From: Candidatus Woesearchaeota archaeon
Lineage (GTDB): Archaea; Nanobdellota; Nanobdellia; SCGC-AAA011-G17; GW2011-AR18
NCBI GenBank assembly: GCA_964395935.1
Contig: CAYNBR010000003.1
Coordinates: 1-36,063 of the forward strand
Length of the DNA stretch: 36,063 bases
Direction of reading: 5' to 3'
The notes beneath the pieces were generated by a model. It searched no databases and had not been told where the DNA came from. It was given only the letters and a program-made list of their open reading frames with translations. Shown here piece after piece: positions 1,964 to 15,126 of the stretch. The position numbers and the translations under genes are program-made. Positions within the stretch are counted from its first letter, which is position 1. The number at the start of each line of letters is the position of its first letter.

Positions 1964-4582
1964 ATGCAAGAAAAATTCGCATTAAGAAAGACGTTAAAAA
2001 AGGTTGCTGCAATAGGCACAAGTTTAGCTATGGTAGGAATTACTGTTAGCGGAGCACTAGCAGCTGGTTTAGGAGATTATCCTACAGGATTAGGTTTTAA
2101 TAATATGGCAGGTCAAACTGTTGTTGTTTATGGATCATTAGGATCTGATAATGCAGCAGCACAAGATGTTTTAAGTGGTTTACCCGGCGGTAGTGCAGTA
2201 GTTACTACAGCAACAACTACAACTGCATCAACTGCATCAACTGCTACAAGCGGTGTACAATATGGTGTTGGAAGTTTAGGAACACAAGCAATTGGCGATT
2301 TATTTGAAACTGGTTCAAATGCACAAAGCAAAGAAGTTCCAATTATTGAAAAACTAAACGCTACAACTAATTTTGGTCAGACTTTAGAAAATGAAGATTT
2401 AGCTTATTTGAAAGATTCTAGTGTAGCTATTTCAATGCACGACACAAGTGATAACTATGATTTCCATGAAGAAGTAAGACTTGGCGGAAATAATAACGTT
2501 GTTAACACTGTTCAATTAAATACTGGTTTGACATATGATTCAAATAGAAATGAGAAATTTAAGAGCAATTTATTTTTAGTAACACCAGCAAATTCTCTTG
2601 GATTTTATTATGTATTTGATAAATCCTTGAAAGCTGGAAACTATGTTTCTAACTCAACAACTTTGGAACCATTCCAAATTGATTTCTTGGGAGAAACTAT
2701 CTCTATAGAAAATACAGTTCAATCAACAAGTTCTGCATCAACAACAAACGATGCAGACACTATAACTTTATCAGTTGGTAAAAGAGCAGTTTTAAGTACT
2801 GGTGAAAGTATGACTGTAATGTTAGCTGGACAAACTTACACAGTAACAATGACTGGCACAACTTCTACTGGTTCTGGTAAAGCAGATATAACTGTTACGG
2901 GTCCTGCTGGAAGCCAGAGAGAAGTAGTTTCTCAAGATACATCATTATCTTTTAATAGTGTTGGTCCAAGACCTATACAATTAAGAGTAGAAGACGTATT
3001 TGATGAACAAGGTACAGCTGATGATAGAGCTACAATAATTGTAGGAACTGAACAATCTGGCGGTACTAAAGGAGCTTACAATGCAAGAAAGACTTATGAT
3101 ACTGGAAATGGATACATTGGTGAAGACAGTGATAATCCAATTTGGGTATGGCAATTAGGAAACTTAACTGGAACAAACCCTACAATAGGTGTAAGGAATG
3201 CTTTAAATGTTAATTCTTACTCTGAGACAGACAACGCATTAGTTAAACACGTACCTTATGTAGGAGATTACTCTTGTTTACCTAACTTCTACGTATGTAT
3301 GGTATTTGAAAAAATGCATGAAAGTGACGACAATTTCAGATGGTATGAAGTAAGTGCTAGTGATCAAAAAGATTTAAGAACTATTGATGGTCAAACTAGT
3401 GCAGATCAATCAGGTCTGAGTGTTGTTACATTGTCTGCGAAAGGTACAAGCAATCAAGGTTTTGTAGCAGGTGGTACTAAAGCTAGTGAATTGTACATTG
3501 CACAGAATACATCTATGGTTGGTGTATGGAGAAGAAAACAAGATTCATCAGAGGCATTATTTGTATCTGCTAACTTTACTCCTGCAGTAGGTTTATCTAT
3601 ATTAAATGACTTCGCGACATTAGACTATGGAAGTACTTCAGTAGCGTTAGACTTATTGGTGGATAATAATCAAGCAGCACCACAAGCATCTTCAAGTCTT
3701 CTTCAACTTAGTGGAACTGCAAATATAGGTACTGCTTTGTTGGTAGTGGACGATCCTAATAACGCTACTAATGTTAACTTAGTTTATGCAGCTGCTCCCG
3801 GTTTAGTTGCTGGTGATGGTGCAACGCATCCGTTTAATACAACTAGTAGACATCTTTTTACAAGTGTATTAAACTCAGGTGACCTAGCTATGATGTTCCA
3901 AAATAGTACATCTACTGGTGGCTTTACTTATTTAGGACGTAGTAAATCAGACACTGTTGTAGGAAATGAGCTTACTTATAAAGCAGCAGATGGAACTATA
4001 GAGGATATATCTAGCTGGCAAGAAGATACAAGAACTTTAGATGGTATGGTTATAAGAGACCCAGATGCTAATTCACCTGGTGATGTTCTTCAATTTGGTC
4101 TTCCTGCTGATTGGAGAAACTTTAAATCTACCGTGACTTTTGCAAGGCCTAAAGCTGGTTTCTTAAGTACAACTGGTATAGGTGGAAAACCTGTTTCAGG
4201 TGTTGGTGGAACTACAAAAACTTCAAGTGTTTTAGTAAAAGATACAGAAGTTGGAGATGTAAGTATGTATAATGCAGTAGTAGTTGGTGGTCCTTGTGTA
4301 AATAAGGTTGCAGCTTCATTATTGGGAGTAACTTTCCCAGCATGTGGTGCTCAATCTGGTTTAACTGGTCCTGGTTCAGCTACATTAGTACTAAAAGATA
4401 ATGGTACTAAGAAGGCATTACTTGTATATGGTTGGGAAGCAGATGATACAGCTAGAGCAGCGGTATTATTAAAAGATCCAACTAAATTACGTGAAAAGTT
4501 AAGTGCAGCAAGCAAATTAACTGCAGACTCTGTAAATGTAAAAGGTACAAGTATGGATGTAGCAGCTATAACTGTAGAATAA
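1964..4582 (+). CDS. S-layer-like surface (glyco)protein precursor
   Basis: 872 aa. Sec-type signal peptide (KKVAAIGTSLAMVGITVSGALAAG). Thr/Ser/Ala-rich low-complexity linker (TTATTTTASTASTAT). Acidic, Thr/Ser/Gly/Asn-rich with very few Cys. C-terminal VVVGGPCVNKVAASLLGV motif resembles the GGPxxN motif of methanococcal-type archaeal S-layer proteins. About 9 N-X-S/T sequons by eye. Visibly higher GC than its neighbours, with a strong SD and a terminator. Confidence 0.65.
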   Translation: MQEKFALRKTLKKVAAIGTSLAMVGITVSGALAAGLGDYPTGLGFNNMAGQTVVVYGSLGSDNAAAQDVLSGLPGGSAVVTTATTTTASTASTATSGVQYGVGSLGTQAIGDLFETGSNAQSKEVPIIEKLNATTNFGQTLENEDLAYLKDSSVAISMHDTSDNYDFHEEVRLGGNNNVVNTVQLNTGLTYDSNRNEKFKSNLFLVTPANSLGFYYVFDKSLKAGNYVSNSTTLEPFQIDFLGETISIENTVQSTSSASTTNDADTITLSVGKRAVLSTGESMTVMLAGQTYTVTMTGTTSTGSGKADITVTGPAGSQREVVSQDTSLSFNSVGPRPIQLRVEDVFDEQGTADDRATIIVGTEQSGGTKGAYNARKTYDTGNGYIGEDSDNPIWVWQLGNLTGTNPTIGVRNALNVNSYSETDNALVKHVPYVGDYSCLPNFYVCMVFEKMHESDDNFRWYEVSASDQKDLRTIDGQTSADQSGLSVVTLSAKGTSNQGFVAGGTKASELYIAQNTSMVGVWRRKQDSSEALFVSANFTPAVGLSILNDFATLDYGSTSVALDLLVDNNQAAPQASSSLLQLSGTANIGTALLVVDDPNNATNVNLVYAAAPGLVAGDGATHPFNTTSRHLFTSVLNSGDLAMMFQNSTSTGGFTYLGRSKSDTVVGNELTYKAADGTIEDISSWQEDTRTLDGMVIRDPDANSPGDVLQFGLPADWRNFKSTVTFARPKAGFLSTTGIGGKPVSGVGGTTKTSSVLVKDTEVGDVSMYNAVVVGGPCVNKVAASLLGVTFPACGAQSGLTGPGSATLVLKDNGTKKALLVYGWEADDTARAAVLLKDPTKLREKLSAASKLTADSVNVKGTSMDVAAITVE
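2222..2248 (+). repeat. in-frame 9-bp tandem repeat (ACTGCATCA x2 + ACTGCTACA) encoding TAS-TAS-TAT
   Basis: Direct reading: two perfect 9-nt units and one 7/9 unit, in frame inside the Thr-rich linker of the S-layer-like gene. Confidence 0.7.
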
Positions 4583-4607
4583 GGTTAAAACCTTTTTTCT
4601 TTTTTTA
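4581..4607 (+). terminator. hairpin + oligo-T terminator after S-layer gene
   Basis: AAGGT-TAAA-ACCTT stem-loop overlapping the stop codon, followed by TTTTCTTTTTTT. Oligo-T tracts are archaeal termination signals. Confidence 0.45.
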
Positions 4608-4670
4608 TTAATTTATATTCCTAAATTTTTTTAAGAAACATTTTTAATCTAGTTATAATTTTAAATTACT

Positions 4671-5273
4671 ATGAAAAAGACAAAATATTCTAAAAATAAT
4701 ATTAATAATCAGGCTGAAGAGAAGCCTAAACAAAATATTCTAAAAAATAAAGCTTTATGGGGCTTAATTATTATTGTACTGATGTTTGGCTCAGTGATTT
4801 CATTTGGTTTTTTTAATAAGAATAATAATGCTACAAATACTAATAAAGTCGAATATAATGGCTATACTTTTACAAATAATGGGAAGGGGTGGATTACAGA
4901 TTATAAGGGGCAACAAGTTGCTTTCGGATATACACCAAATGAAGTTACAGATATTAATCTAGAGAAATTAACTTTTGGGAATAAATTTGAATATATAATA
5001 TTTAAACCTGGAGAGTTTGATGAAAATAATTATGAGGTTAATAGGTTAAGATCTTTATTGGCTTTAAATGGAATAAAAGTTTATCCTGCTTGTATTGAAG
5101 AAAAAAATTGTGGGAATTTACCGGTGAATGCTTGTAATGAGAATGCAATATACCTTAAATTAGGAAATGAGACTAAAGGTTATTGGGATACTTGTTATAT
5201 ATTAGAAAGTAAATCTGAAGATATGTTAAAACTTATAGATAGGTTTATATACAATGTTTATGGTATTGCTTAG
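4671..5273 (+). CDS. hypothetical N-terminally membrane-anchored extracytoplasmic protein (paralog A)
   Basis: 200 aa. Basic N-terminus then one TM (ALWGLIIIVLMFGSVISFGFF). 4 Cys. The C-terminal ~40 aa is clearly similar to the next gene's product. Confidence 0.6.
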   Translation: MKKTKYSKNNINNQAEEKPKQNILKNKALWGLIIIVLMFGSVISFGFFNKNNNATNTNKVEYNGYTFTNNGKGWITDYKGQQVAFGYTPNEVTDINLEKLTFGNKFEYIIFKPGEFDENNYEVNRLRSLLALNGIKVYPACIEEKNCGNLPVNACNENAIYLKLGNETKGYWDTCYILESKSEDMLKLIDRFIYNVYGIA

Positions 5274-5275
5274 AA

Positions 5276-5926
5276 ATGATGAATAGGAGAAAAATAGAAT
5301 TATTAATTGCCTGGATTGTAATATTTGCAGTAATTATTTCTTTTTTCGTGATTAGAGCAAGAAGTTCACATAGTTTCACATATCAAGGTAAAAATGCAGA
5401 ATATAAATTTGATGTTCAACAAATAGGCGTAGTTACTTTTTATAGGCCGCATGTAGTTTTTAATGGTAAGGAATATGTTTATGCATTTAGAAATAAACCT
5501 CAAGATTTGAAAGATATCTCTTTAGAAGAAGGTTTAGAAAATAAATTAAATAGACCAAAAGGTTTACAAGATTTATATGTTACTAAAGATGTTAATTTGA
5601 CTACTTTAACAAGCGGCAGTGTAAGTGTTATTGTTGCACCAATGATCACTATTTTAGGAAAAACAGATGCAGGATTATATCAAATTAGAGTTACAAGTGC
5701 TTATACAAGTTTCCATGCTGGAGAACCAATTGCGCCTGTTGTCGATTGTTCTACTGTTAATTTAAATGCTAAAGTGAATAAAACTATAGGAGTAGTGCTT
5801 GTTAAATTAGGAAATGAAAATAAAGTTTATTCTGATGGTGATTGTATAGTTGTAGAGGGAAAAGATACAGATGGTTTAGTTAAATCTGCTGAGAAATTTG
5901 CTTATAACTTAATTGGAGTGTTTTAA
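5276..5926 (+). CDS. hypothetical N-terminally membrane-anchored extracytoplasmic protein (paralog B)
   Basis: 216 aa. Signal anchor (IELLIAWIVIFAVIISFFVI). C-terminus VKLGNENKVYSDGDCIVVEGKDTDGLVKSAEKFAYNLIGVF aligns with LKLGNETKGYWDTCYILESKSEDMLKLIDRFIYNVYGIA of the upstream protein. 2-nt spacer. Confidence 0.6.
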   Translation: MMNRRKIELLIAWIVIFAVIISFFVIRARSSHSFTYQGKNAEYKFDVQQIGVVTFYRPHVVFNGKEYVYAFRNKPQDLKDISLEEGLENKLNRPKGLQDLYVTKDVNLTTLTSGSVSVIVAPMITILGKTDAGLYQIRVTSAYTSFHAGEPIAPVVDCSTVNLNAKVNKTIGVVLVKLGNENKVYSDGDCIVVEGKDTDGLVKSAEKFAYNLIGVF

Positions 5927-6072
5927 TGATTTCAAAAGATTTACTTGAAATATTGGCTTGTCCTGTTTGTAAAAGTGATGTTAAATTTAAAGATAATAAA
6001 ATAGTTTGTACTAATAAGAAATGTCGTAAAACTTATGAAGTTAAAGATGGAATACCTATAATGTTGGCTTAA
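5926..6072 (+). CDS. trm112: Trm112/UPF0434-family small zinc-ribbon protein (not in ORF track)
   Basis: 48-aa ORF MISKDLLEILACPVCKSDVKFKDNKIVCTNKKCRKTYEVKDGIPIMLA. LACPxC ... C..C ... Y.(I/V).DGIP.ML is the Trm112p-like signature. TAATG overlap with the preceding stop. Confidence 0.75.
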   Translation: MISKDLLEILACPVCKSDVKFKDNKIVCTNKKCRKTYEVKDGIPIMLA

Positions 6073-6077
6073 TAACA

Positions 6078-6085
6078 TTTAAAAA
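6078..6085 (+). promoter_or_regulatory. candidate TATA box for the tRNA gene
   Basis: TTTAAAAA centred ~29 nt upstream of tRNA position 1 (6110). Confidence 0.35.
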
Positions 6086-6109
6086 GATAATTAATTGCTA
6101 AATTCTTAA

Positions 6110-6206
6110 GCCGACGTCGCTTAATCCGGTATAGCGCCGGTCTTGAAGTTTAAACAAGCTAACCGGTGCCTGAAAAGGCTTGTAGGTTCAAATCCTGCCG
6201 TCGGCG
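6110..6206 (+). tRNA. tRNA-Ser(UGA) with 13-nt canonical-position intron (6148..6160)
   Basis: Hand-folded cloverleaf:
- Acceptor GCCGACG/CGTCGGC.
- D arm GCT(T)/(T)AGC with A14, G18G19 and A21.
- Anticodon stem CCGGT/ACCGG, loop CT-TGA-A|intron|A.
- Long variable arm GCC-TGAAAA-GGC.
- T arm GTAGG-TTCAAAT-CCTGC.
- Discriminator G; no encoded CCA.
The long variable arm plus G73 fit Ser. Confidence 0.85.
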
Positions 6207-6211
6207 TATAT

Positions 6212-6220
6212 TTTATAAAA
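6212..6220 (+). promoter_or_regulatory. candidate TATA box, leaderless GT2 operon
   Basis: TTTATAAAA centred ~25 nt upstream of ATG 6241; no SD. Confidence 0.45.
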
Positions 6221-6240
6221 GCTTTTAATTTACTTTCAAT

Positions 6241-7059
6241 ATGCAAAAGTTATGTCCAAAAGTGCTTATAGGAATTCCAGTTTCAGAACAACATGGGTAT
6301 GCTACTGAGAATCTTATAAAAAGAATTGAAAATCTAAGTTATCCAAATTACGATATTTTAATAATTGATAATTCTAAAACTGATAAACATTTTAAAAGTA
6401 TTAAAACTAAGAAGGCTAAAGTTATGTGGGATTTTTATTCTTTTAAGAAGGTAAGAGATAAATTGGTTGCATGCAGAAATTATATGAGGGAAATTATTTT
6501 AGAAAATGATTATGATTATTTATTATGCATAGATCAAGATGTTATTCCTCCTTTTGATCTTATTGAAAAATTGATTTTTAATCATAAAGATATTGTTACT
6601 GGAATTTACTATAACTATTTTGACAAATCTAATGGTGGAACAATTAAACTTCCAGTTATATGGAAATTTTTTACTAAAGAAGATTTAGATTATGCTAAAA
6701 ATAATTTAGATAAAATAAAAGAAATAAATCCTAAAGCTTATAAATTTTTAACTGACAAGAAAGATGATGAATTTTTATTAGATTATTTACAGAAGCCTGT
6801 AAGTGTAAAAGAAGCCACTTCAGGAAAGTTATTAGAAATAAAAATATGCGGTACTGGATGTATATTAATAAGCAAAAAAATTTTAAAAGAAATAGAATTT
6901 AGATACGAGGGGGAAGAAGCATTTGATGATACATTTTTTTGTAAAGATGCTACAAAGAAAGGATATAAAATTTATGCAGACACAAATGTACAGTGTGAGC
7001 ATATTATTATGGAAGGTTTATGGACTTGGGAACAAATAAAAAGTAGAGGAGAAATGTAG
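6241..7059 (+). CDS. family 2 glycosyltransferase (GT-A), paralog 1
   Basis: 272 aa. VLIGIPVSEQ ... YPNYDILIIDNS ... DYLLCIDQDVIPP (DxD-like DQD) ... CGTGCILIS ... DDTFFC. Roughly 35-45% identical by eye to the next ORF. Confidence 0.7.
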   Translation: MQKLCPKVLIGIPVSEQHGYATENLIKRIENLSYPNYDILIIDNSKTDKHFKSIKTKKAKVMWDFYSFKKVRDKLVACRNYMREIILENDYDYLLCIDQDVIPPFDLIEKLIFNHKDIVTGIYYNYFDKSNGGTIKLPVIWKFFTKEDLDYAKNNLDKIKEINPKAYKFLTDKKDDEFLLDYLQKPVSVKEATSGKLLEIKICGTGCILISKKILKEIEFRYEGEEAFDDTFFCKDATKKGYKIYADTNVQCEHIIMEGLWTWEQIKSRGEM

Positions 7060-7781
7060 TGGGAAATTTTAAAGTTTTAGTTGGTGGGCCTGTAAGCGAT
7101 CATCATGATTATTGTTATGATCAATTTATTAAGGCTGTAAAAAGTTTAACTTATCCTAATTTAGATATTTGTTTCGTTGATAATTCTAAAGATGATAAAT
7201 TTTATAATAAAATTAAAAAAGATTTACCCGGAACTTTAAGAATTCCTTATAATGAAAGTGTTAAGGTTAGATTAGCAGATTCTAGGAATTTAGTTAAAGA
7301 AAAAGCTTTGAAGGAAGGTTATGATTATTTATTTTGTTTAGATCAAGATACTATTCCTCCTAAAGATATAATTGAAAGGTTATTAAAACATGAAAAATAT
7401 ATTACTACCGGTGTTTATTATGGGAGATTTACTAAACTTAATCCTATGACAAATAAATATGAACAAAAAGTATTACCATTGATTAGAGTTAAATCTTTGA
7501 AAGATCCTAATTTGTTTGTTAGTGTAAGGCAAGATGTAATTGAGTCTGGTAACTTAATTGAAATTCATTCCTGCGGTACTGGATGTATATTAATACATAG
7601 AAATGTTTTGGAAAAAATTAAATTTAGATGGAAAGAAGATAAGCCTGGAGTTGATGATGTATTTTTTTGTGAAGATGCTTTAAATTTCGGATTTAAGATC
7701 TATGCAGATACTAGTATTATATGCGAACATTTAGTTGATGGAAGAAAAATACATTGGGGAGAAGGAGATATGAAAACTTAA
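7059..7781 (+). CDS. family 2 glycosyltransferase (GT-A), paralog 2
   Basis: 240 aa. GTG start overlapping the upstream TAG by 1 nt, with GAGGAG SD 8 nt upstream. VLVGGPVSD ... YPNLDICFVDNS ... DYLFCLDQDTIPP ... CGTGCILIH ... DDVFFC. Confidence 0.7.
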   Translation: MGNFKVLVGGPVSDHHDYCYDQFIKAVKSLTYPNLDICFVDNSKDDKFYNKIKKDLPGTLRIPYNESVKVRLADSRNLVKEKALKEGYDYLFCLDQDTIPPKDIIERLLKHEKYITTGVYYGRFTKLNPMTNKYEQKVLPLIRVKSLKDPNLFVSVRQDVIESGNLIEIHSCGTGCILIHRNVLEKIKFRWKEDKPGVDDVFFCEDALNFGFKIYADTSIICEHLVDGRKIHWGEGDMKT

Positions 7782-7792
7782 CACAAAAAGTG

Positions 7793-7800
7793 TTATAAAG
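7793..7800 (+). promoter_or_regulatory. candidate TATA box, leaderless start of Bat-like operon
   Basis: TTATAAAG centred ~26 nt upstream of ATG 7822; no SD. Confidence 0.45.
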
Positions 7801-7821
7801 AGGCTTGAGTTTAATTATTCT

Positions 7822-9594
7822 ATGGTCTTTCAGCTTGGAAATACATTAGGATTTTGGGCTTTTTTATCTTTAATCCCTTTAATAATCTTCTATTTAATAA
7901 AACCTAAACCTGCAAACTTAAAAGTTCCTTCTTTAATGTTCTTTTTTTCAAGAGAAAAGTCTACTACAGCAGAGTCAATATTAAGGCATTTTCATGACGA
8001 TTTATTATTCTTAATACAATTATTAGTTTTAAGTTTATTGGCTTTTAGTTTAGTTCAACCAGCTTTAACTGTAAAAAAAGATGCAGTTTCAAGCAATATT
8101 GTTTTTGTTTTGGATGCAAGTGCAAGTTCAAAAGTTCTTGAAGGTGATAAAACAAGATTTGAAATTGCTAAAGATAAAATAAAAGAATTGGTAACATCTA
8201 GAAATTCATTAGTATTAATAAAATCAAGACCAATTTTAGTTCTGCAAGGTGTCGGGAGAAGCGAACTTGTAAAGTATTTAGATAAATTGGAAGCTACTGA
8301 TGATTTATCTGATATTTCTTCTGCAATAATTTTAGCAGCTGAATTATTGAGTAATGCTAAAGGAAGAGTCGTGGTATTGAGTGATTTAATATCTAGTAAA
8401 GGTGTTCCTGTAGGTTTGGGACAAAAGATATTAGAAGGTAAAGGGATACCTGTTGATTTTATCACGCCTGCGAAAGATAATAAAAAAAATATTGGAATAG
8501 TAAATATGGTGTTAACAAGCGATACTGCAAACGTTTATGTTAAAAATTATAATGATAATGATGAGAATGTCAATTTAAAAGTTGGAAATGATTTAAGAAC
8601 ATTTAATGTAAAAGCCGGAAGTGTAGAACCTAATGTCTTTAGTTTGACAGAGGGAGATATAAATTTTGAGATTTTAAATAAAGATGACTTTGTTACAGAT
8701 AATAAAATTGTAATTACTAAGCCTTATGGTGATGAAATTAAAGTAATGTTAATAAGTAGTAACCCTTCTCCATTTTTGAAAGCTGCTTTAAGTTCTATAA
8801 CTAAAGTAAAATTAACTACAGCTGAGCCTCCAGTAATTCCAGCAGGAGATTTTGATGTTTACATAGTAAACAAAGTAAATAAAAATAGTTTATTGGTTGG
8901 TACTTTTAAAGATCTCAGTGAAAAAATTAAAAGTGGTAAAGGCAACATTATAGTTGCAGCTTGGCCTGGAATGGAACTTTTAGACTTTGAAGGATTATTG
9001 CCTTTGCAGATATTGGAAAAAGAGAAAGGCAGCACTATAAACGTTGATCAAGTTACAAGATTTACTAAAGATATAGATTTCGGAAGTGTAAGTAATTATT
9101 ATAAAGTTGTATTAAAAAATGGATTAAGTATTGCATCTTCAAATGGCAGCTCGTTAATCTCTTCTTTTAAATTAGATAAAGGTGAATTAATTTATTATGG
9201 GATTATGGATGATGAAAGTGATTTTAAGTTAAATCCTAATTATCCTATATTTTGGAATAATTTAATTTTTTATATAGCTGGAAGATCAGATTTAAATGAC
9301 TTGAATTTAAAGACTGGAAATATTTTAGAAATTAATAATAATACAGTTACATTAGATAAAGCAGGAGTATTTTATTTGGCTAATAAAAAAGTTTCTGTTA
9401 ATCTTTTAAATGAAAAAGAATCTGATATAAATTTTAAAGATTTTACAAATGATATAAACTTAAAAACTGTAGACTATAAATTAGAAAGTGTAAAAGTTTA
9501 TGTAGACTATAATTTAGGATTCTATTTAGTTTTAATTGTTTTATTTTTAGTAATTTTTGAATTAGGCTTTATTAAATTTAGGGGTGAATTATGA
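7822..9594 (+). CDS. BatA-N-domain / VWA-like membrane protein
   Basis: 590 aa. N-terminus LGFWAFLSLIPLIIFYLIKPKPANLKVPSLMFF matches the aerotolerance-regulator (BatA) N-terminal TM domain. IVFVLDASASS is a DxSxS MIDAS-like motif. C-terminal TM (LGFYLVLIVLFLVIFELGFI). Confidence 0.7.
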   Translation: MVFQLGNTLGFWAFLSLIPLIIFYLIKPKPANLKVPSLMFFFSREKSTTAESILRHFHDDLLFLIQLLVLSLLAFSLVQPALTVKKDAVSSNIVFVLDASASSKVLEGDKTRFEIAKDKIKELVTSRNSLVLIKSRPILVLQGVGRSELVKYLDKLEATDDLSDISSAIILAAELLSNAKGRVVVLSDLISSKGVPVGLGQKILEGKGIPVDFITPAKDNKKNIGIVNMVLTSDTANVYVKNYNDNDENVNLKVGNDLRTFNVKAGSVEPNVFSLTEGDINFEILNKDDFVTDNKIVITKPYGDEIKVMLISSNPSPFLKAALSSITKVKLTTAEPPVIPAGDFDVYIVNKVNKNSLLVGTFKDLSEKIKSGKGNIIVAAWPGMELLDFEGLLPLQILEKEKGSTINVDQVTRFTKDIDFGSVSNYYKVVLKNGLSIASSNGSSLISSFKLDKGELIYYGIMDDESDFKLNPNYPIFWNNLIFYIAGRSDLNDLNLKTGNILEINNNTVTLDKAGVFYLANKKVSVNLLNEKESDINFKDFTNDINLKTVDYKLESVKVYVDYNLGFYLVLIVLFLVIFELGFIKFRGEL

Positions 9595-11966
9595 TAAATT
9601 TATTTGATCTTACTTATAGATATTTTGAGAATCCATATTTTTTGTTATTGATTATACCGTCTATAATTATATTAATATACTTGATAACTAAAGATTTTAT
9701 TAAAGTTCCATTAGATAAAAATCAGCAGTCTAAATTAAAGCATAAAAGGATTATTGTAATTATATCTAGAATAATTATATTTGTTTTATTATTTATTGCT
9801 TTATCCGGACCATTTGTAGAAAAATATATGACCATACAGGGAGATCCAAAATTAAAATTATTAATAGATAATTCTACTTCTATGCAAGTTTTCGATTTTG
9901 AAGCTATTAATAATTTACAAGATCAATTAAACTCTAGATTGCCTCTTGAAACAGTTTACATAAGTAGCGGAGAGAAAAGTTCCTTAGGGGATAATATACT
10001 TGTAAATTTAAAAAGGAATGAAAATGTCTTACTGCTTTCAGATGGATATAGTAATTCAGGAATTAGTTTAGGTGATATTGTATTAAAGTCTAATAGTCTT
10101 AATTCTAGTATTAGTGCTATTAATTTAAAACCGAAATATTATGATGCTTCAATCACAATTTCTGGAAGTGATAAAACTAGCAGTGGTGCAGATAATACAT
10201 TTACTGTTTCTCTAAAACAGACTGAGAGGAAGAGTGTTCATGTAGTTGTTGAAATAGATGGAGTAAGTGTTTTGGATACTAAAACTGATAAGGATACATT
10301 AACAATAACTAAAACTTTTTCAGAGGGATATCATAAAATAACTGCTAAATTAGATACAGAAGATTATTTCAAGAATAATAATATATTTTATAAAACTGTT
10401 AAAGTTGTGCCTAAACCTAAAATTTTAATTTATAGCAAAGTGGGTATTGGGATAAATAAGTTATATGATCCTTTATATGATATTACTCTAACTAGTGATT
10501 TTCCTAAAGATTTAGGTATATACACTGCAGTTGTTGTAGATGACATTGAAATAAAAGATATTAATGATAAGACAGATTTACTTACTGATTTTGCGGCTTC
10601 TGGAAATGGTTTATTTGTTCTTGGAGGAGGTAATTCTTTTGATTCTGGCGGTTATAAAAATTCTAACTTTGAACAGATATTACCTGTTTATGTTTCAAAA
10701 GCTGGAAGGAAAAAAGGAGAAAATAATATTGTAATTGCTATAGATATTTCTGGAAGTACAGGACATGTATTCCAAGGAAGTGTGAAATCTGATATTGAGA
10801 AAGCTATTGCTTTAGATATGATAAAAAATTTAAGTTTAGTAAATAATGTAGGTGTTGTTGCATTTAATACACAAGGGTATAAAGTATTTGATATAAAACC
10901 ATTAATAGACCAACCAGATATGGAAGATATAATTATGAGACTAAAATATGATGGCGGTACTTATATTTCCAATGGTTTATTGATGGCAATTGAAATGCTT
11001 AAAGGTAAGGGTGGAAGTAAAAATATTATACTTATTTCTGATGGAAGAAATCAAGATTTTGAACAAACTAATGAGGCTCTTAGATTGGCCAGCAGCCAGG
11101 GTATAAGGATTTATGCAATTGGTGTTGGGGAAGATACAGATAATAAGAATATGAAGGACATTGCAGATTCTACTGGCGGTACTTATTTTGAGCCTGATTC
11201 TACTGATAGAGTTAGAATTTTATTTGGTGATACAGAAATGAGCGGGACAAAGAAAGTATTTCCTTTAGTTGCTATTGATAAAAATCATTTTATAACTCAG
11301 AATTTAAATTTAAAAGGTAATATTTATGGATTTAATCAAGTTGTGCCTAAAGATAGTGCTAAATTACTAGTTACAGATGATGTTGGAGATCCAATAGTAG
11401 CAGTTTCAAGATTAGGATTGGGAAGAGTTGCGGTTTTAGCTACTGACTATAAATTATATGGGTTTGAATTATTAAATAAAGATAATTCTTTGTTATTGAC
11501 TAGAATTGGAAATTGGGTTATTGGAGATCCTGAAAGGAAAAATGATAAATTTGTAGAAATACAAGATGGAAGAATTGCGGAAGCTATAGATGTTAAGGTG
11601 AAATCAGATATACAGCCAAGTTCAAGTGAATTGGCATTGTATAAAGTTGATGATAGTCTTTATGATGGAAGTATTATTGTAAATAATGTGGGATTTAAAA
11701 GTTTGTTAGATGGTGTATTTGCTGTAAATTATAAAGAAGAATATCAAGGTGTTGGTATGAATAACCAATTAATAGGTGTTGTAAAAGCTTCTGGAGGAAG
11801 AATATTTAAGCAAGATGAAATTGAAGCAATCGTAGAATTTATAAAGTTGAAATCTAAGAGAGAAATGGTAACTAAAAAGAGCTATAGTTGGATATTTGCT
11901 TTAGCTGCTTTACTGGTTTACTTAATAGAAGTAAGCTATAGGAGAATAAATAGAAATAAAAAATGA
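9591..11966 (+). CDS. BatA/BatB-like VWA-domain membrane protein
   Basis: 791 aa. N-terminus FENPYFLLLIIPSIIILIYLI (BatA-N-like) plus a second TM. Central region ILIYSK ... LFVLGGGNSF is class-I amidotransferase-like/ThuA-like. VWA domain with MIDAS IAIDISGSTG and downstream ILISDG. C-terminal TM. GGGGTGA SD and ATGA overlap with the upstream gene. Confidence 0.75.
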   Translation: MINLFDLTYRYFENPYFLLLIIPSIIILIYLITKDFIKVPLDKNQQSKLKHKRIIVIISRIIIFVLLFIALSGPFVEKYMTIQGDPKLKLLIDNSTSMQVFDFEAINNLQDQLNSRLPLETVYISSGEKSSLGDNILVNLKRNENVLLLSDGYSNSGISLGDIVLKSNSLNSSISAINLKPKYYDASITISGSDKTSSGADNTFTVSLKQTERKSVHVVVEIDGVSVLDTKTDKDTLTITKTFSEGYHKITAKLDTEDYFKNNNIFYKTVKVVPKPKILIYSKVGIGINKLYDPLYDITLTSDFPKDLGIYTAVVVDDIEIKDINDKTDLLTDFAASGNGLFVLGGGNSFDSGGYKNSNFEQILPVYVSKAGRKKGENNIVIAIDISGSTGHVFQGSVKSDIEKAIALDMIKNLSLVNNVGVVAFNTQGYKVFDIKPLIDQPDMEDIIMRLKYDGGTYISNGLLMAIEMLKGKGGSKNIILISDGRNQDFEQTNEALRLASSQGIRIYAIGVGEDTDNKNMKDIADSTGGTYFEPDSTDRVRILFGDTEMSGTKKVFPLVAIDKNHFITQNLNLKGNIYGFNQVVPKDSAKLLVTDDVGDPIVAVSRLGLGRVAVLATDYKLYGFELLNKDNSLLLTRIGNWVIGDPERKNDKFVEIQDGRIAEAIDVKVKSDIQPSSSELALYKVDDSLYDGSIIVNNVGFKSLLDGVFAVNYKEEYQGVGMNNQLIGVVKASGGRIFKQDEIEAIVEFIKLKSKREMVTKKSYSWIFALAALLVYLIEVSYRRINRNKK

Positions 11967-12433
11967 GCTTTATAGATGAAAATGCAAATATAGGTCTTTT
12001 TGTATTAATTGTGGTAATTGCTTGTGCTGTTGTTGCTTTAACTTTTTTTTATCAAGATAATTTTTTACAGATAAATACTAGATATAATGATAAATTAAAT
12101 GAATTAAATAATACTTTCCAGAAACTACAAGGTGCACAATCGCAACTTAACCAGACTGCAGAAGAATTACAATTAAAATCACAAAGGGAACAAGATTTAT
12201 CTGGAAAGTATACAGATGTAAAAAGTCAGAAGGATTCTTTACAGAAAGAAAGAGATGATTTAAGTGAATTGACTAATGAACAGGAAGATAATATCCGAGC
12301 CTTAAATTCGACAGTTAAAGATCTTAAGAGTCAAATTAATGATAAAGACAATAAAATCTCTAGTTTGCAAGACCAAATAAGTAATCTGCAAAATACAATT
12401 AGCTGTTTGAGGGCTGGAAATGCAAATTGTTGA
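11963..12433 (+). CDS. membrane-anchored coiled-coil protein
   Basis: 156 aa. One N-terminal TM (IGLFVLIVVIACAVVALTFF), then ~110 aa of Q/E/K/L/N-rich heptad-like sequence. Ends ...SCLRAGNANC (2 Cys). ATGA overlap upstream and 14-nt overlap downstream. Confidence 0.6.
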   Translation: MSFIDENANIGLFVLIVVIACAVVALTFFYQDNFLQINTRYNDKLNELNNTFQKLQGAQSQLNQTAEELQLKSQREQDLSGKYTDVKSQKDSLQKERDDLSELTNEQEDNIRALNSTVKDLKSQINDKDNKISSLQDQISNLQNTISCLRAGNANC

Positions 12434-13208
12434 GAAAGCATTAAAGGAACTTAAAAAAGTATTATTTATTTTAGATTTTAGCGGTAAATTTTTAAATTTT
12501 TTGTTAATACTCCTGTTTATTCTATTGTTGTCTAATCTTCTTAATTTTCCTTGGATTTATGCAGTTATTTTAAGTACAATATATTTAATTATAGTTTTAA
12601 CTTTATCTTTTTTTGAAAATAAATTTTTAATTGTTGAAGGTAAGGTTCCAGAACTAAATGAACAACTTAGGACTGTTGCTGACAATGTAAATAGGACTAA
12701 TCCTATAATTGACGGCTTAAAAGAAGATGTTGTTAAGAATATGAAAAAAGTTAAGACTTCTTATTTCATAGATGAGAAAAGAATCGGGGTAAAAATAATA
12801 ATTCTTTGTGGATTGGCATTTTTAATTGTGTTTCTTTCTTTTCTAAATATAAACTTTAATTTTAATGGTTTTAATTTTAATGTACAAGAAACTTTAAATG
12901 GTATAGGTATTAGAAATTATAGTTCTGAACCAGTACATTTGAATTTTTTTTTATCACAAGGCAATTTAAGTGATATACTTGGAAATAAAAGTATTGCTAC
13001 TCTTGGAAATAAAGATTTATTGTTAACTATTAATCCTTTAGAAAGTGATGCTGATTTGAGCACTGTGCAAAAAGAAGAATCAAATGAATTTAATCAACCA
13101 GATTTTCCAAAAGAGATATATACTAGATATGACGCTTCATATAACGAGAAGATAGCTAAAGAAAATCAGAAGGTTGTTAAAACTTATTTCGATCAAATAA
13201 CAAGGTGA
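12420..13208 (+). CDS. hypothetical polytopic membrane protein of the MoxR operon
   Basis: 262 aa. Two TM segments near the N-terminus and one near residue 130 (IIILCGLAFLIVFLSFL). No recognised motif. Ends 4 nt before moxR. Confidence 0.55.
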   Translation: MQIVEKALKELKKVLFILDFSGKFLNFLLILLFILLLSNLLNFPWIYAVILSTIYLIIVLTLSFFENKFLIVEGKVPELNEQLRTVADNVNRTNPIIDGLKEDVVKNMKKVKTSYFIDEKRIGVKIIILCGLAFLIVFLSFLNINFNFNGFNFNVQETLNGIGIRNYSSEPVHLNFFLSQGNLSDILGNKSIATLGNKDLLLTINPLESDADLSTVQKEESNEFNQPDFPKEIYTRYDASYNEKIAKENQKVVKTYFDQITR

Positions 13209-13212
13209 GAAT

Positions 13213-14151
13213 ATGAATATAGATGAAATACAGAAGAGATTCAAAGCACTATATTTTGAAGTTGCTAGATCTGTTGTAGGCCAAGAAGATGTTGTTGAAC
13301 AAACTGTTGCTGCTATTTTATGCAATGGTCATGCTTATTTAGAAGGATATCCAGGATTAGCTAAAACTTTACTTGTTAAAACTTTATCAAATGTTTTGGA
13401 TTTAAGATTCAGCAGAATACAAGGAACTCCTGATTTACTGCCTTCAGATATTACAGGAACTTATGTTATTGATGAAAGCAAAGGTAAAAAGGAATTTAAA
13501 TTTCAACCTGGGCCAATATTTGCAAATATTGTTTTAGTTGATGAAGTTAATAGGGCTACTCCTAAAACGCATTCTGCTATTTTGGAAGCCATGCAGGAAA
13601 AACAAGTTACTGTTGGTAATGCTACGTATAAATTGGAAGAACCTTTCTTTGTTTTAGCTACAGGAAATCCTATTGAGCAGGAAGGTGTTTTTAAATTAAG
13701 TGAAGCACAAATTGACAGGTTTTTATTTAAAATAAATGTTGTATATCCTAAATTCGATGATGAAGTTAAGATTGTAGATATGTACAGCGATAAAGATGCT
13801 TCAGATATTAAATTGAGAAAATTATTTACTAAAGATGAATTATTAAAATTACAGATGTTAACTAAGCAAGTTCCAGTTGCTAATGATATGAAGAAATATG
13901 CTGTTGAAATTGTTGATAAAACTAGAAAGAATAAAGCCTTGATTGAGTATGGTGCTAGTCCAAGAGCAAGTATTAATTTAATTTTAGCAGCTAAGGCTAG
14001 AGCATTAATGAATGGAAGAAAGTATGTTTCTAAAGAAGATATTAATGTTATGGCTTATCCTGTTTTGAGGCATAGAATCATATTAAGTTTTGAAGCTGAA
14101 AGACAAGGATTAACTGAGGATGCAGTTATAACTAAGATTCTTAAAGGTTAA
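13213..14151 (+). CDS. moxR: MoxR-family AAA+ ATPase (AAA_3)
   Basis: 312 aa. GHAYLEGYPGLAKT (Walker A), RIQGTPDLLPSDITGT, VLVDEVNRATPKT (Walker B), LATGNPIEQEGVFKLSEAQIDRF. AGGTGA SD 6 nt upstream. Confidence 0.9.
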   Translation: MNIDEIQKRFKALYFEVARSVVGQEDVVEQTVAAILCNGHAYLEGYPGLAKTLLVKTLSNVLDLRFSRIQGTPDLLPSDITGTYVIDESKGKKEFKFQPGPIFANIVLVDEVNRATPKTHSAILEAMQEKQVTVGNATYKLEEPFFVLATGNPIEQEGVFKLSEAQIDRFLFKINVVYPKFDDEVKIVDMYSDKDASDIKLRKLFTKDELLKLQMLTKQVPVANDMKKYAVEIVDKTRKNKALIEYGASPRASINLILAAKARALMNGRKYVSKEDINVMAYPVLRHRIILSFEAERQGLTEDAVITKILKG

Positions 14152-14157
14152 GAATTA

Positions 14158-14172
14158 AACTGAGCTTCAGTT
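14158..14172 (+). terminator. short hairpin between moxR and DUF58 gene (possible attenuating or processing element)
   Basis: AACTGA-GCT-TCAGTT (6-bp stem, 3-nt loop) 6 nt after the moxR stop. Only a weak T-rich tail (ATGCATTTCTT), so terminator function is doubtful. Confidence 0.2.
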
Positions 14173-14235
14173 ATGCATTTCTTAGTTCTGCCAGCAAGAG
14201 TTAATTTATTAAACAAGAAAGTTCTATAATTCTTA

Positions 14236-15084
14236 ATGATTAATACGGACTTTTTAAGACAACTTGAAAAATTTAATTTAGTAATAAGAAAGAAGGTTGC
14301 TTCTAGCTTTACAGGTGAGAGAAGGGCAGATATTGGAGGTTCAGGATTAATATTTAGAGATTATTCTAATTATCAATATGGAGATGATTTTAAAAATATA
14401 GACTGGAAGGCTTATGCAAGAACTGAGAAATTTTACGTTAAAAGATATGAAGAGGATCGAAACTTAACTATTCATATTCTTTTAGACTTAAGTGGCAGTA
14501 TGGATTTTGGAAGTAAGATAAAAAAATATGAGTTTGGAGCAATGATTGCTTTAGGTTTTTCCTATATTGCAATGAAGAATAATGAAAAGTTTGTTTTAAG
14601 TACTTTTGATGATAAATTAGAATTTTTTAAACCGCAAAAAGGTAAGCATCAATTAGCTTCAATATTAGAATATTTAAATAGTAAACAAGCTAAGGGCGTA
14701 AGCAGCTTTGAAAAATCTTTACTTTCTTATAGATCATTAATAAATTCTAAGGCTATGGTGATTATTATTTCTGACTTTTTTTATAGTCCAGAAGAAATTA
14801 AGAATATTTTACATAGGTATAAGGGAAATAAAATAAAATTAATACAAACTTTAGATTATTTAGAAAACAATATGAATTTAGAAGGAGATTATAATTTAAT
14901 AGATTTAGAGAGTGATGCCAGAATGAGGACTTTTATAGATCCATTTTTAAGAAAACAATATTTTGAAAAGTTGAATGCACATAATGCTATGATTGTAGAA
15001 GCTTGCAATAGTGTTAAAGCTGATTTTTTTAAAGTTACTAATGATGAAAACATATTTGATGTATTCTATAGGATATTAACTTAA
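14236..15084 (+). CDS. DUF58-family protein (VWA-like, MoxR partner)
   Basis: 282 aa. FRDYSNYQYGDDFKNIDWKAYARTEKFYVKRYEEDR followed by ILLDLSGSM is the canonical DUF58 signature. Confidence 0.85.
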   Translation: MINTDFLRQLEKFNLVIRKKVASSFTGERRADIGGSGLIFRDYSNYQYGDDFKNIDWKAYARTEKFYVKRYEEDRNLTIHILLDLSGSMDFGSKIKKYEFGAMIALGFSYIAMKNNEKFVLSTFDDKLEFFKPQKGKHQLASILEYLNSKQAKGVSSFEKSLLSYRSLINSKAMVIIISDFFYSPEEIKNILHRYKGNKIKLIQTLDYLENNMNLEGDYNLIDLESDARMRTFIDPFLRKQYFEKLNAHNAMIVEACNSVKADFFKVTNDENIFDVFYRILT

Positions 15085-15106: not shown

Positions 15107-15126
15107 TATTCTTAGTTCTAGATATT

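Follow-up and report, generated by a model that had tools for sequence, protein, structure and literature searches.

Organisation of the six-gene locus

The DNA analysed here (the window) is an entire 36-kb contig of a 942-kb archaeal genome (99% complete, 27–28% G+C), whose nearest public relatives carry the labels Woesearchaeota or Nanoarchaeia. At positions 7822–15084 it holds six open reading frames (ORFs), all on the + strand, which we call g1 to g6. The first two encode large membrane proteins with VWA domains: g1 (7822–9594, 590 aa) is a BatA_N/VWA protein with three transmembrane (TM) segments, and g2 (9591–11966, 791 aa) is a paralogue of g1 with an extra VWA domain. They are followed by g3 (11963–12433, 156 aa), a single-pass coiled-coil protein; g4 (12420–13208, 262 aa), a DUF7502 membrane protein; g5 (13213–14151, 312 aa), a MoxR AAA+ ATPase; and g6 (14236–15084, 282 aa), a DUF58 protein. 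A first-pass annotation of the window had described these genes as a Bat-related membrane module of MoxR, DUF58 and VWA proteins, and the assignments by hidden Markov model (HMM) given below bear it out. We have little doubt that the region is a widely conserved archaeal variant of the MoxR–DUF58–VWA (Bat-like) systems.

The genes are tightly packed. The g1/g2 and g2/g3 junctions are both ATGA overlaps, g3 and g4 overlap by 14 nt, and the end of g4 contains an AGGTGA with the moxR ATG 4 nt further on; 84 nt separate moxR from DUF58. These overlaps, the AGGTGA and the three DxSxS motifs that had been noted are all present in the ORF list and the sequence. The overlaps and the 4-nt gap argue for coupling from g1 through to moxR.

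The paralogous VWA membrane proteins

Pfam recognises BatA_N (E 1.9e-9; 38.3 bits against a cut-off of 25.9 bits), VWA_2, DUF7407 and DUF7408 in g1. The protein begins with the double-TM anchor of BatA_N, followed by the VWA domain, the DUF7407 β-sandwich, the DUF7408 glutamine-amidotransferase-like domain, a C-terminal TM segment and the tail KFRGEL. The MIDAS (metal-ion-dependent adhesion site) of the VWA domain is intact (D98-x-S100-x-S102 in the motif FVLDASASS, with S187-D188), and these residues are invariant in the 44 orthologues aligned. The AlphaFold2 (AF2) model, built on 44 sequences, has a mean predicted local distance difference test (pLDDT) score of 85.9. In Foldseek searches the N-terminal half matches many VWA domains, including those of ITIH1, PTMP1, TRAP, LapA and ArnB; the C-terminal half matches the GATase1_like proteins STM1381 and STM3548 (3soz/2gk3), the ThuA-like protein 1t0b and the middle domain of GH42.

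In g2, Pfam detects a VWA domain (E 4e-21) and GATase1_like, with BatA_N below the cut-off (15.4 against 25.9 bits). When profile was aligned against profile with hhalign, g2 came out as paralogous to g1 over its full length (probability 99.6%, E 1.7e-23). The VWA domain detected by Pfam is the second one, at approximately residues 370–545, and is inserted inside the amidotransferase-like domain. The protein has two MIDAS-type sites, D93/S97/D151 and D385/S387/D484, the motif IAIDISGST being accompanied by the N-proximal LLIDNSTSM; D93, S97 and D151 are invariant in 24 orthologues. With a BatA_N anchor followed by VWA, g1 is a BatA-type protein, and g2 belongs to the type by paralogy. The first-pass annotation had given both proteins a BatA N-terminal TM domain and a C-terminal TM segment; the segments are there in both, and the BatA_N match passes the cut-off in g1 only. 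It had also counted three MIDAS-like motifs, all of them real, and had missed LLIDNSTSM; the cassette has four DxSxS/MIDAS-type sites, one in g1, two in g2 and one in g6. In two Methanotrichaceae genomes g2 is split into several short ORFs (L105:11728-14087 and L117:11665-14029), which could be pseudogenes or assembly errors.

Neither g1 nor g2 contains a single cysteine, and both families have about 0.1 Cys per 100 aa. An enzymatic class I glutamine amidotransferase, with its Cys-His-Glu triad, is thereby ruled out for both proteins; in the absence of the cysteine nucleophile the amidotransferase-like domain would be non-catalytic, and only the fold is shared with the enzyme.

The C-terminus of g1 is conserved. 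Directly after the last TM segment, nearly all Woesearchaeota-like copies end in [K/R]-x-R-G-[D/E]-hydrophobic-COOH. The corresponding tails are KWRGDI in Archaeoglobales, RRRGDL or KYRGDI in haloarchaeon-like genomes, R.RGEL in methanogen-like genomes and G-[D/E]-hydrophobic in most Nanohaloarchaea. The tail is altered where g1–g2 is detached from g3–g6, to RRRET in Methanothrix and to RRGAF in genome G011. The last TM segments of g1 and g2 both end L-x-E-hydrophobic-x-x-[I/K]-[K/R]-x-R; beyond it g2 has a variable basic tail, unlike g1. A sorting signal of the PGF-CTERM/PEP-CTERM type, suggested by a last TM segment with a basic tail, was rejected by inspection, as no PGF or PEP motif precedes the helix. 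The acidic residue of the g1 tail, which we predict to be cytoplasmic, is a plausible candidate ligand of the DUF58 MIDAS.

MoxR and DUF58

The g5 product matches AAA_3 (E 3.3e-58) and AAA_lid_2 (E 3e-22) in Pfam, and its best solved homologue by sequence is Cytophaga MoxR (PDB 2r44, E 2.9e-79). The Walker A motif (GYPGLAKT), the Walker B DE, N152 of sensor 1, R169 as the arginine finger and the GASPRA motif are all intact and invariant in 37 orthologues; sensor 2 is intact as well. DUF58 lies 84 nt downstream and the VWA membrane genes g1 and g2 lie upstream, an arrangement that is conserved in relatives and is the genomic context of the MoxR-proper (MRP) subfamily. Judged by these motifs and this context, g5 is a MoxR AAA+ ATPase of that subfamily with its catalytic motifs intact. 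In several relatives, one of them haloarchaeon-like, MoxR carries an intein with a LAGLIDADG endonuclease (L044:15396-18236 and L053:11860-14184; long MoxR ORFs also occur in L030, L031, L038, L039, L047, L051 and L152). The intein site follows position 122 or so of the 131 of AAA_3, just ahead of the QxDRF arginine-finger block. The MoxR of the window is intein-free.

The g6 product matches DUF58 (E 1.4e-37; 129.5 bits against a cut-off of 23.4 bits). Its MIDAS (D84-x-S86-x-S88 in the motif LLDLSGSM, with S179-D180) is invariant in 38 orthologues, and a sequence search returned no solved relative. Neither MoxR nor DUF58 has a hydrophobic segment or a TM helix; by prediction g6 is a cytoplasmic VWA-like adaptor.

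The source genome has a second AAA+/VWA pair, conserved across the family, on contig 18 at about 5977–8100 (L002:3-2121, minus strand). One member is a chelatase-like ATPase of 338 aa (AAA_3/Mg_chelatase); the other, adjacent to it, is a VWA protein some 400 aa long that matches DUF58 weakly.

The coiled-coil protein and DUF7502

The first-pass annotation had set g3 and g4 apart as two extra uncharacterised components, a description that is not borne out for either. The g4 product matches the Pfam family DUF7502 (PF24334, E 1.4e-11), as do all 19 of the orthologues tested, and DUF7502 is, on this showing, a core part of the cassette. The protein has an N-terminal amphipathic helix, a TM hairpin, a conserved helical segment at about residues 66–122, a third TM segment and a tail of low confidence. 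The best-conserved motif of the family, VE.K.P.L.E.LRTA.DN, lies in the helical segment, which is predicted to be cytoplasmic. Two short motifs are conserved in the tail (DIYG..S.A.LG and PKEIY..D.SY.E.I..E....VK.YF). In the AF2 model residues 1–143 are confident and helical and residues 145–241 have pLDDT below 50; the fold has no PDB match below E 5 in Foldseek.

The g3 product consists of a short N-terminus, one TM segment, a coiled coil of about 110 residues and a C-terminal Cys pair (C148/C156). All 48 orthologues have one TM segment, and 32 of the 48 have at least two Cys within the last 45 residues. The family (the window protein and 18 orthologues) gives only coiled-coil noise in Pfam and NCBIfam. 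As a coiled-coil partner, g3 is conserved in most lineages. Searches of open-access text returned no paper dealing with DUF7502 or the cassette, and we found no published name for the DUF7407/DUF7408/DUF7502 cassette.

Conservation, gene order and distribution

The six-gene block is syntenic in relatives. When the six products were compared by BLASTP with the ORFs of 16 loci, 13 of the 14 relatives from the family and order were found to keep the gene order of the window. In genome G011, g1–g2 and g3–g6 lie on separate contigs. A scan with the g1 profile, at one genome per species, found 79 loci, which were annotated with HMMs of the six genes. The order g1-g2-g3-g4-g5-g6 is present in every long enough locus of Woesearchaeota-like archaea and Nanohaloarchaea, about 40 loci. 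The single Aenigmatarchaeota locus has g1 to g4 in this order, with no match to g5 or g6 within that locus. The Archaeoglobales locus has the order g3-g4-g5-g6-g1-g2. Twelve loci come from the phylum of Methanothrix: five (47–72% G+C, haloarchaeon-like) have the order of the window, and the other seven (38–44% G+C, methanogen-like) have g4-g5-g6-g1-g2, without g3. Methanothrix loci contain g1–g2 alone, and DUF7502 was not found in a complete Methanothrix chromosome; it occurs in 42 of 201 genomes of that phylum.

From Woesearchaeota-like to methanogen-like loci, archaea have two regular orders, each a circular permutation of the other. The order in the window, which had been called non-canonical, is the regular one in DPANN archaea and in haloarchaeon-like genomes. 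In the g1 tree the permuted order forms one clade (support 100/99), and the window sequence falls among the Woesearchaeota-like copies. Nanohaloarchaea (L103, L104 and L113) group with haloarchaeon-like copies (L142–L145 and L152; support 98/94), with which they have their gene order in common; symbiont–host transfer might explain this grouping, as might attraction through a common acidic composition.

A DUF7408-bearing BatA_N–VWA protein, its longer paralogue, DUF7502, MoxR and DUF58, adjacent and on one strand, are found together in the window and in about 55 other loci. Each of DUF7502 and DUF7408 occurs as a single copy. Of 41 related genomes, 25 have the two together and 15 have neither; the remaining genome, which is 80% complete, has DUF7502 without DUF7408. 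The cassette is nearly universal within the family of the window; of the order's 16 other families, 13 gave no DUF7502 match. In the phylum DUF7502 is present in 108 of 301 high-quality genomes (36%) and in 84 of 225 genera. An exhaustive profile search of 1.84 billion representatives gave 715 clusters at 50% identity, and Haloferax volcanii and Methanosarcina acetivorans match the Pfam families of the cassette. The cassette is frequent but dispensable. This weakens the argument, put forward in the first-pass annotation, that retention in so small a genome points to an important role. The copy in the window is ordinary, and nothing separates it from many others.

Predicted topology

In both g1 and g2 there are three hydrophobic segments, two of them N-terminal and one C-terminal. 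Over 71 g1 and 57 g2 orthologues, the number of Lys and Arg residues is 0.3–0.6 at the N-terminus, 3.2–5.2 in the loop between the first two TM segments and 0.6–1.5 after TM2. By the positive-inside rule, these counts put the loop and the short C-terminal tail in the cytoplasm and the large domains outside. The prediction is thus that the large domains of g1 and g2, and with them the VWA domains, face outward and occupy the space below the S-layer. The content of N-x-S/T sequons differs between the membrane proteins and the soluble pair. The median ratio to expectation is 0.51–0.52 for g1 and g2 and 1.06–1.20 for MoxR and DUF58, and the ratio is below 1 in 91% of g1 and 78% of g2 orthologues. 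The depletion of Cys and the low sequon count of g1 and g2 fit exposure outside the cell; this is suggestive, the orthologues not being independent of one another.

For g4 the sequence reads as an N-terminus inside, a TM hairpin, a cytoplasmic segment of 55 residues, TM3 and a tail outside. The orientation of g3 is not settled by charge. Some orthologues have basic N-terminal extensions; these and the Cys pair favour a coiled coil located outside the cell.

Promoters and gene neighbourhood

The spacer upstream of g1 (7790..7821, + strand) contains the TATA-like TTATAAAG about 25 nt before the ATG, as read from the sequence. It is a possible promoter of the cassette, from which the leader would be short or absent; at 27% G+C such words are common. 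Between moxR and DUF58, the spacer of 84 nt (14152..14235, + strand) contains the TATA-like TTTATTAAA about 25 nt before the DUF58 ATG, a possible internal promoter in the window. In relatives the same junction holds genes on the opposite strand (CN_hydrolase, PIN_2 and a 375-aa orphan). As these separate moxR from DUF58, a promoter dedicated to DUF58 must exist there. Both the gap of 84 nt and the insertions at this junction in relatives argue that DUF58 is transcribable alone. The junction is an insertion hot spot (L067:16732-17532, L050:11563-11982 and L060:10802-11929, equivalent to 14152–14235 of the window). An exact 11-mer, TTCTTAGTTCT, occurs before g6 (14179–14189) and before the next gene (15109–15119). 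It was dismissed as not significant: 5 matches with at most one mismatch are seen where 2.2 are expected, a count attained in 5 of 100 shuffles.

Upstream of the cassette are an S-layer-like gene and two GT2 genes, and AglB (24228–27017) lies 9 kb downstream with unrelated genes between. The S-layer-like gene and two tandem N-anchored paralogues (1964–5926) are syntenic upstream in up to 12 loci, and an AMP phosphorylase and an AI-2E permease are syntenic downstream in up to 9; both syntenies are limited to loci whose g1 is 44–64% identical to that of the window. The tandem paralogues are absent from more distant loci. GT2 genes are near the cassette in only 2–3 loci. The module had been placed between S-layer/glycosyltransferase genes and an N-glycosylation island. 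The upstream genes are as described, and the tie to the island was discarded, since in no other locus does the cassette have AglB or its neighbours close by. At 6110–6206 Rfam detects a tRNA of 97 nt (47.9 bits) that is absent from the ARAGORN calls and probably contains an intron.

Proposed working and alternatives

With moderate confidence we read the region as a complete, conserved archaeal cassette in which a VWA complex facing the envelope is assembled or remodelled by MoxR and DUF58 from the cytoplasm. The envelope role that had been proposed fits the predicted outward topology. The cassette would comprise two sub-modules. One, g1 and g2, would supply the paralogous three-TM proteins with three MIDAS sites facing outward; the other, g3 to g6, would supply the membrane-anchored coiled coil, DUF7502, MoxR and DUF58. 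The mechanism, in which a MoxR/DUF58 motor acts on the outward MIDAS complex via the cytoplasmic parts of g1, g2 and g4, is more tentative, and we would put its chances below even. It is modelled on RavA–ViaA, CbbQ–CbbO and NorQ–NorD. DUF58 would direct the MoxR ring to what few handles the membrane proteins offer in the cytoplasm; the candidates are the basic BatA_N loops, the cytoplasmic helices of DUF7502 and the R-G-[D/E]-hydrophobic C-terminus of g1. ATP hydrolysis would then drive the assembly or remodelling of an outward, metal-dependent binding complex of the cell envelope.

Several points weigh against this proposal. The topology we infer comes from the positive-inside rule and composition only. 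The sequon argument is weak, since sequons are not biased in the S-layer-like protein of the window (9 observed, 10.9 expected). With the VWA domains outside, MoxR cannot touch them directly, which makes the coupling step speculative. The two sub-modules can live apart, as in Methanothrix, which has g1–g2 without DUF7502, and in G011 with its separate contigs. The covariation of the g1 tail with detachment comes from only two evolutionary events. Finally, the function of the bacterial Bat operon itself remains elusive (PMC3557215; PMC11834572).

In one alternative the VWA domains of g1 and g2 would be cytoplasmic and would themselves be direct substrates of MoxR and DUF58, the ATPase loading metal into the MIDAS or remodelling it, as in the old proposal for Bat. 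All MoxR/VWA pairs of known mechanism act, to our knowledge, within a single compartment, and g1 and g2 have no cleavable signal peptide, both of which favour a cytoplasmic location. Coordination of the metal into the MIDAS of Bat proteins by MoxR is an idea quoted in the paper on the Leptospira bat genes (PMC3557215). Such an orientation would, however, put the loop with its 3–5 Lys/Arg outside the cell and the near-uncharged N-terminus and post-TM2 flank inside, in both sets of orthologues (71 + 57), and the Cys depletion and the non-neutral sequon counts fit exposure outside; we consider it unlikely. A further point against it is that NCBIfam TIGR02226, a family for this double-TM anchor, has its N-terminus described as outside; it matches g1 weakly. 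The separability of the sub-modules raises the question of whether two independent systems merely travel together, g1–g2 being a self-sufficient pair of surface adhesins or receptors and g3–g6 a separate MoxR/DUF58/DUF7502 machine with another client. The split contigs of G011, the solitary g1–g2 of Methanothrix with no DUF7502 in its complete chromosome, and the fact that both archaeal orders break exactly between the blocks are all consistent with this, as is the occurrence of MoxR–DUF58 pairs with other partners (PMC5898192). Independence is nevertheless hard to reconcile with blocks that adjoin each other on the same strand in almost every one of about 55 loci from four or five archaeal lineages, with the translational coupling across the g2/g3 boundary in the window and with the agreement of presence and absence in 40 of 41 relatives; moreover, the g1 tail motif changes in both lineages where the blocks are apart. 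We doubt that the blocks are independent.

A functional equivalent of the Bacteroides aerotolerance operon, guarding envelope proteins against oxidative or other stress, would account for the MoxR-proper ATPase, the DUF58 protein and the BatA_N–VWA proteins that the cassette has in common with the Bat operon. Stress phenotypes are seen on mutation of bat or moxR in Bacteroides, Francisella and Riemerella (PMC3557215, PMC11834572), but bat deletions in Leptospira gave no oxidative-stress phenotype (PMC3557215). The cassette has no match to a TPR protein or BatD, its carriers range from aerobic haloarchaea-like to strictly anaerobic methanogen-like genomes, and g1 and g2, with almost no cysteine, cannot act by thiol chemistry; a protective role of this kind seems improbable to us. 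Still less probable, to the point that we give it hardly any weight, is a host-attachment device of DPANN episymbionts whose outward MIDAS sites bind the host surface. The small genome (942 kb), the frequency of the cassette in the phylum and the adhesins among the VWA fold matches (TRAP, LapA and the anthrax toxin receptor) would suit such a device; the occurrence of the cassette in 2–4 Mb genomes of haloarchaeal or methanogen-like composition, and the lack of a DUF7502 match in 13 of 16 other families of the same order, would not. A bolder reading, which we regard as a long shot, is a prokaryotic counterpart of integrin-style transmembrane signalling. The DUF58 MIDAS would grip the g1 tail, much as an I-domain grips an acidic ligand residue, MoxR would pull with DUF7502 as the stator, and the three outward MIDAS sites of g1 and g2 would switch. 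If it were true, these sites would switch between binding and non-binding towards the S-layer or another surface.

MoxR–DUF58–VWA systems rank among the most widespread prokaryotic gene clusters whose functions are yet to be found. The archaeal version is compact (five or six genes), strictly syntenic and present in the genetically tractable Haloferax volcanii and Methanosarcina acetivorans. The predicted outward MIDAS domains, the acidic g1 tail and the cytoplasmic segment of DUF7502 offer handles for testing whether a cytoplasmic AAA+ ATPase acts on an outward complex. New here are the paralogy of g2 and its inserted VWA domain, the predicted outward domains, the Cys-free amidotransferase-like fold, the g1 tail and the MoxR inteins of relatives.

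Comparison with known systems

In RavA–ViaA, CbbQ–CbbO, NorQ–NorD and BchI–BchD, a MoxR-family AAA+ ring acts via an adaptor with a VWA domain and MIDAS. An acidic residue is the point at which this adaptor holds the client; remodelling of the client, or its loading with metal, follows. Client and adaptor of such pairs share a single compartment, the client being an enzyme that is either soluble or in the membrane; in the cassette, by contrast, nearly all of the mass of the presumed clients would lie across the membrane from MoxR and DUF58. The best matches of the DUF7408 domain of g1 are Salmonella STM3548 and STM1381 (2gk3 and 3soz; GATase1_like) and the ThuA-like protein 1t0b, with Foldseek E values of 7e-9 to 4e-5. 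These are small, soluble proteins; g1 and g2, with no Cys, cannot have the amidotransferase nucleophile.

In a sister neighbourhood, that of arCOG01314 (DUF4350), Makarova, Galperin and Koonin (2015) predicted a complex for secretion or membrane remodelling in archaea, in which DUF4350 proteins with an outward flavodoxin-like domain are accompanied by a COG0714 ATPase and a vWA protein (PMC5898192). The two systems have in common a MoxR-type ATPase, a vWA protein and a membrane-anchored, outward domain with a fold like that of flavodoxin or the GH42 middle domain, the class to which the amidotransferase-like domain of g1 matches; both are predicted from genomics only. They differ in their neighbours, which are Ig-like S-layer-type proteins in the arCOG01314 system, unlike in the cassette. 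No DUF4350 match was found in the six window proteins with Pfam, and g1 and g2 start with the double-TM anchor instead.

The Bat operon (moxR, DUF58, batA, batB, batC, batD and batE) and the cassette both have an ATPase of the same MoxR subfamily, a DUF58 protein and a BatA_N–VWA protein with a MIDAS. Its TPR proteins (BatB/BatC/BatE) and BatD have no Pfam match in the six products or in the two downstream ORFs. The VWA proteins of the cassette are much longer (590 and 791 aa), with a β-sandwich, an amidotransferase-like domain and a C-terminal TM segment, and DUF7502 and the coiled-coil protein are added. The Bat order, with moxR and DUF58 ahead of the bat genes, differs from that of the window; the methanogen-type order g4-moxR-DUF58-g1-g2 comes closer to it.

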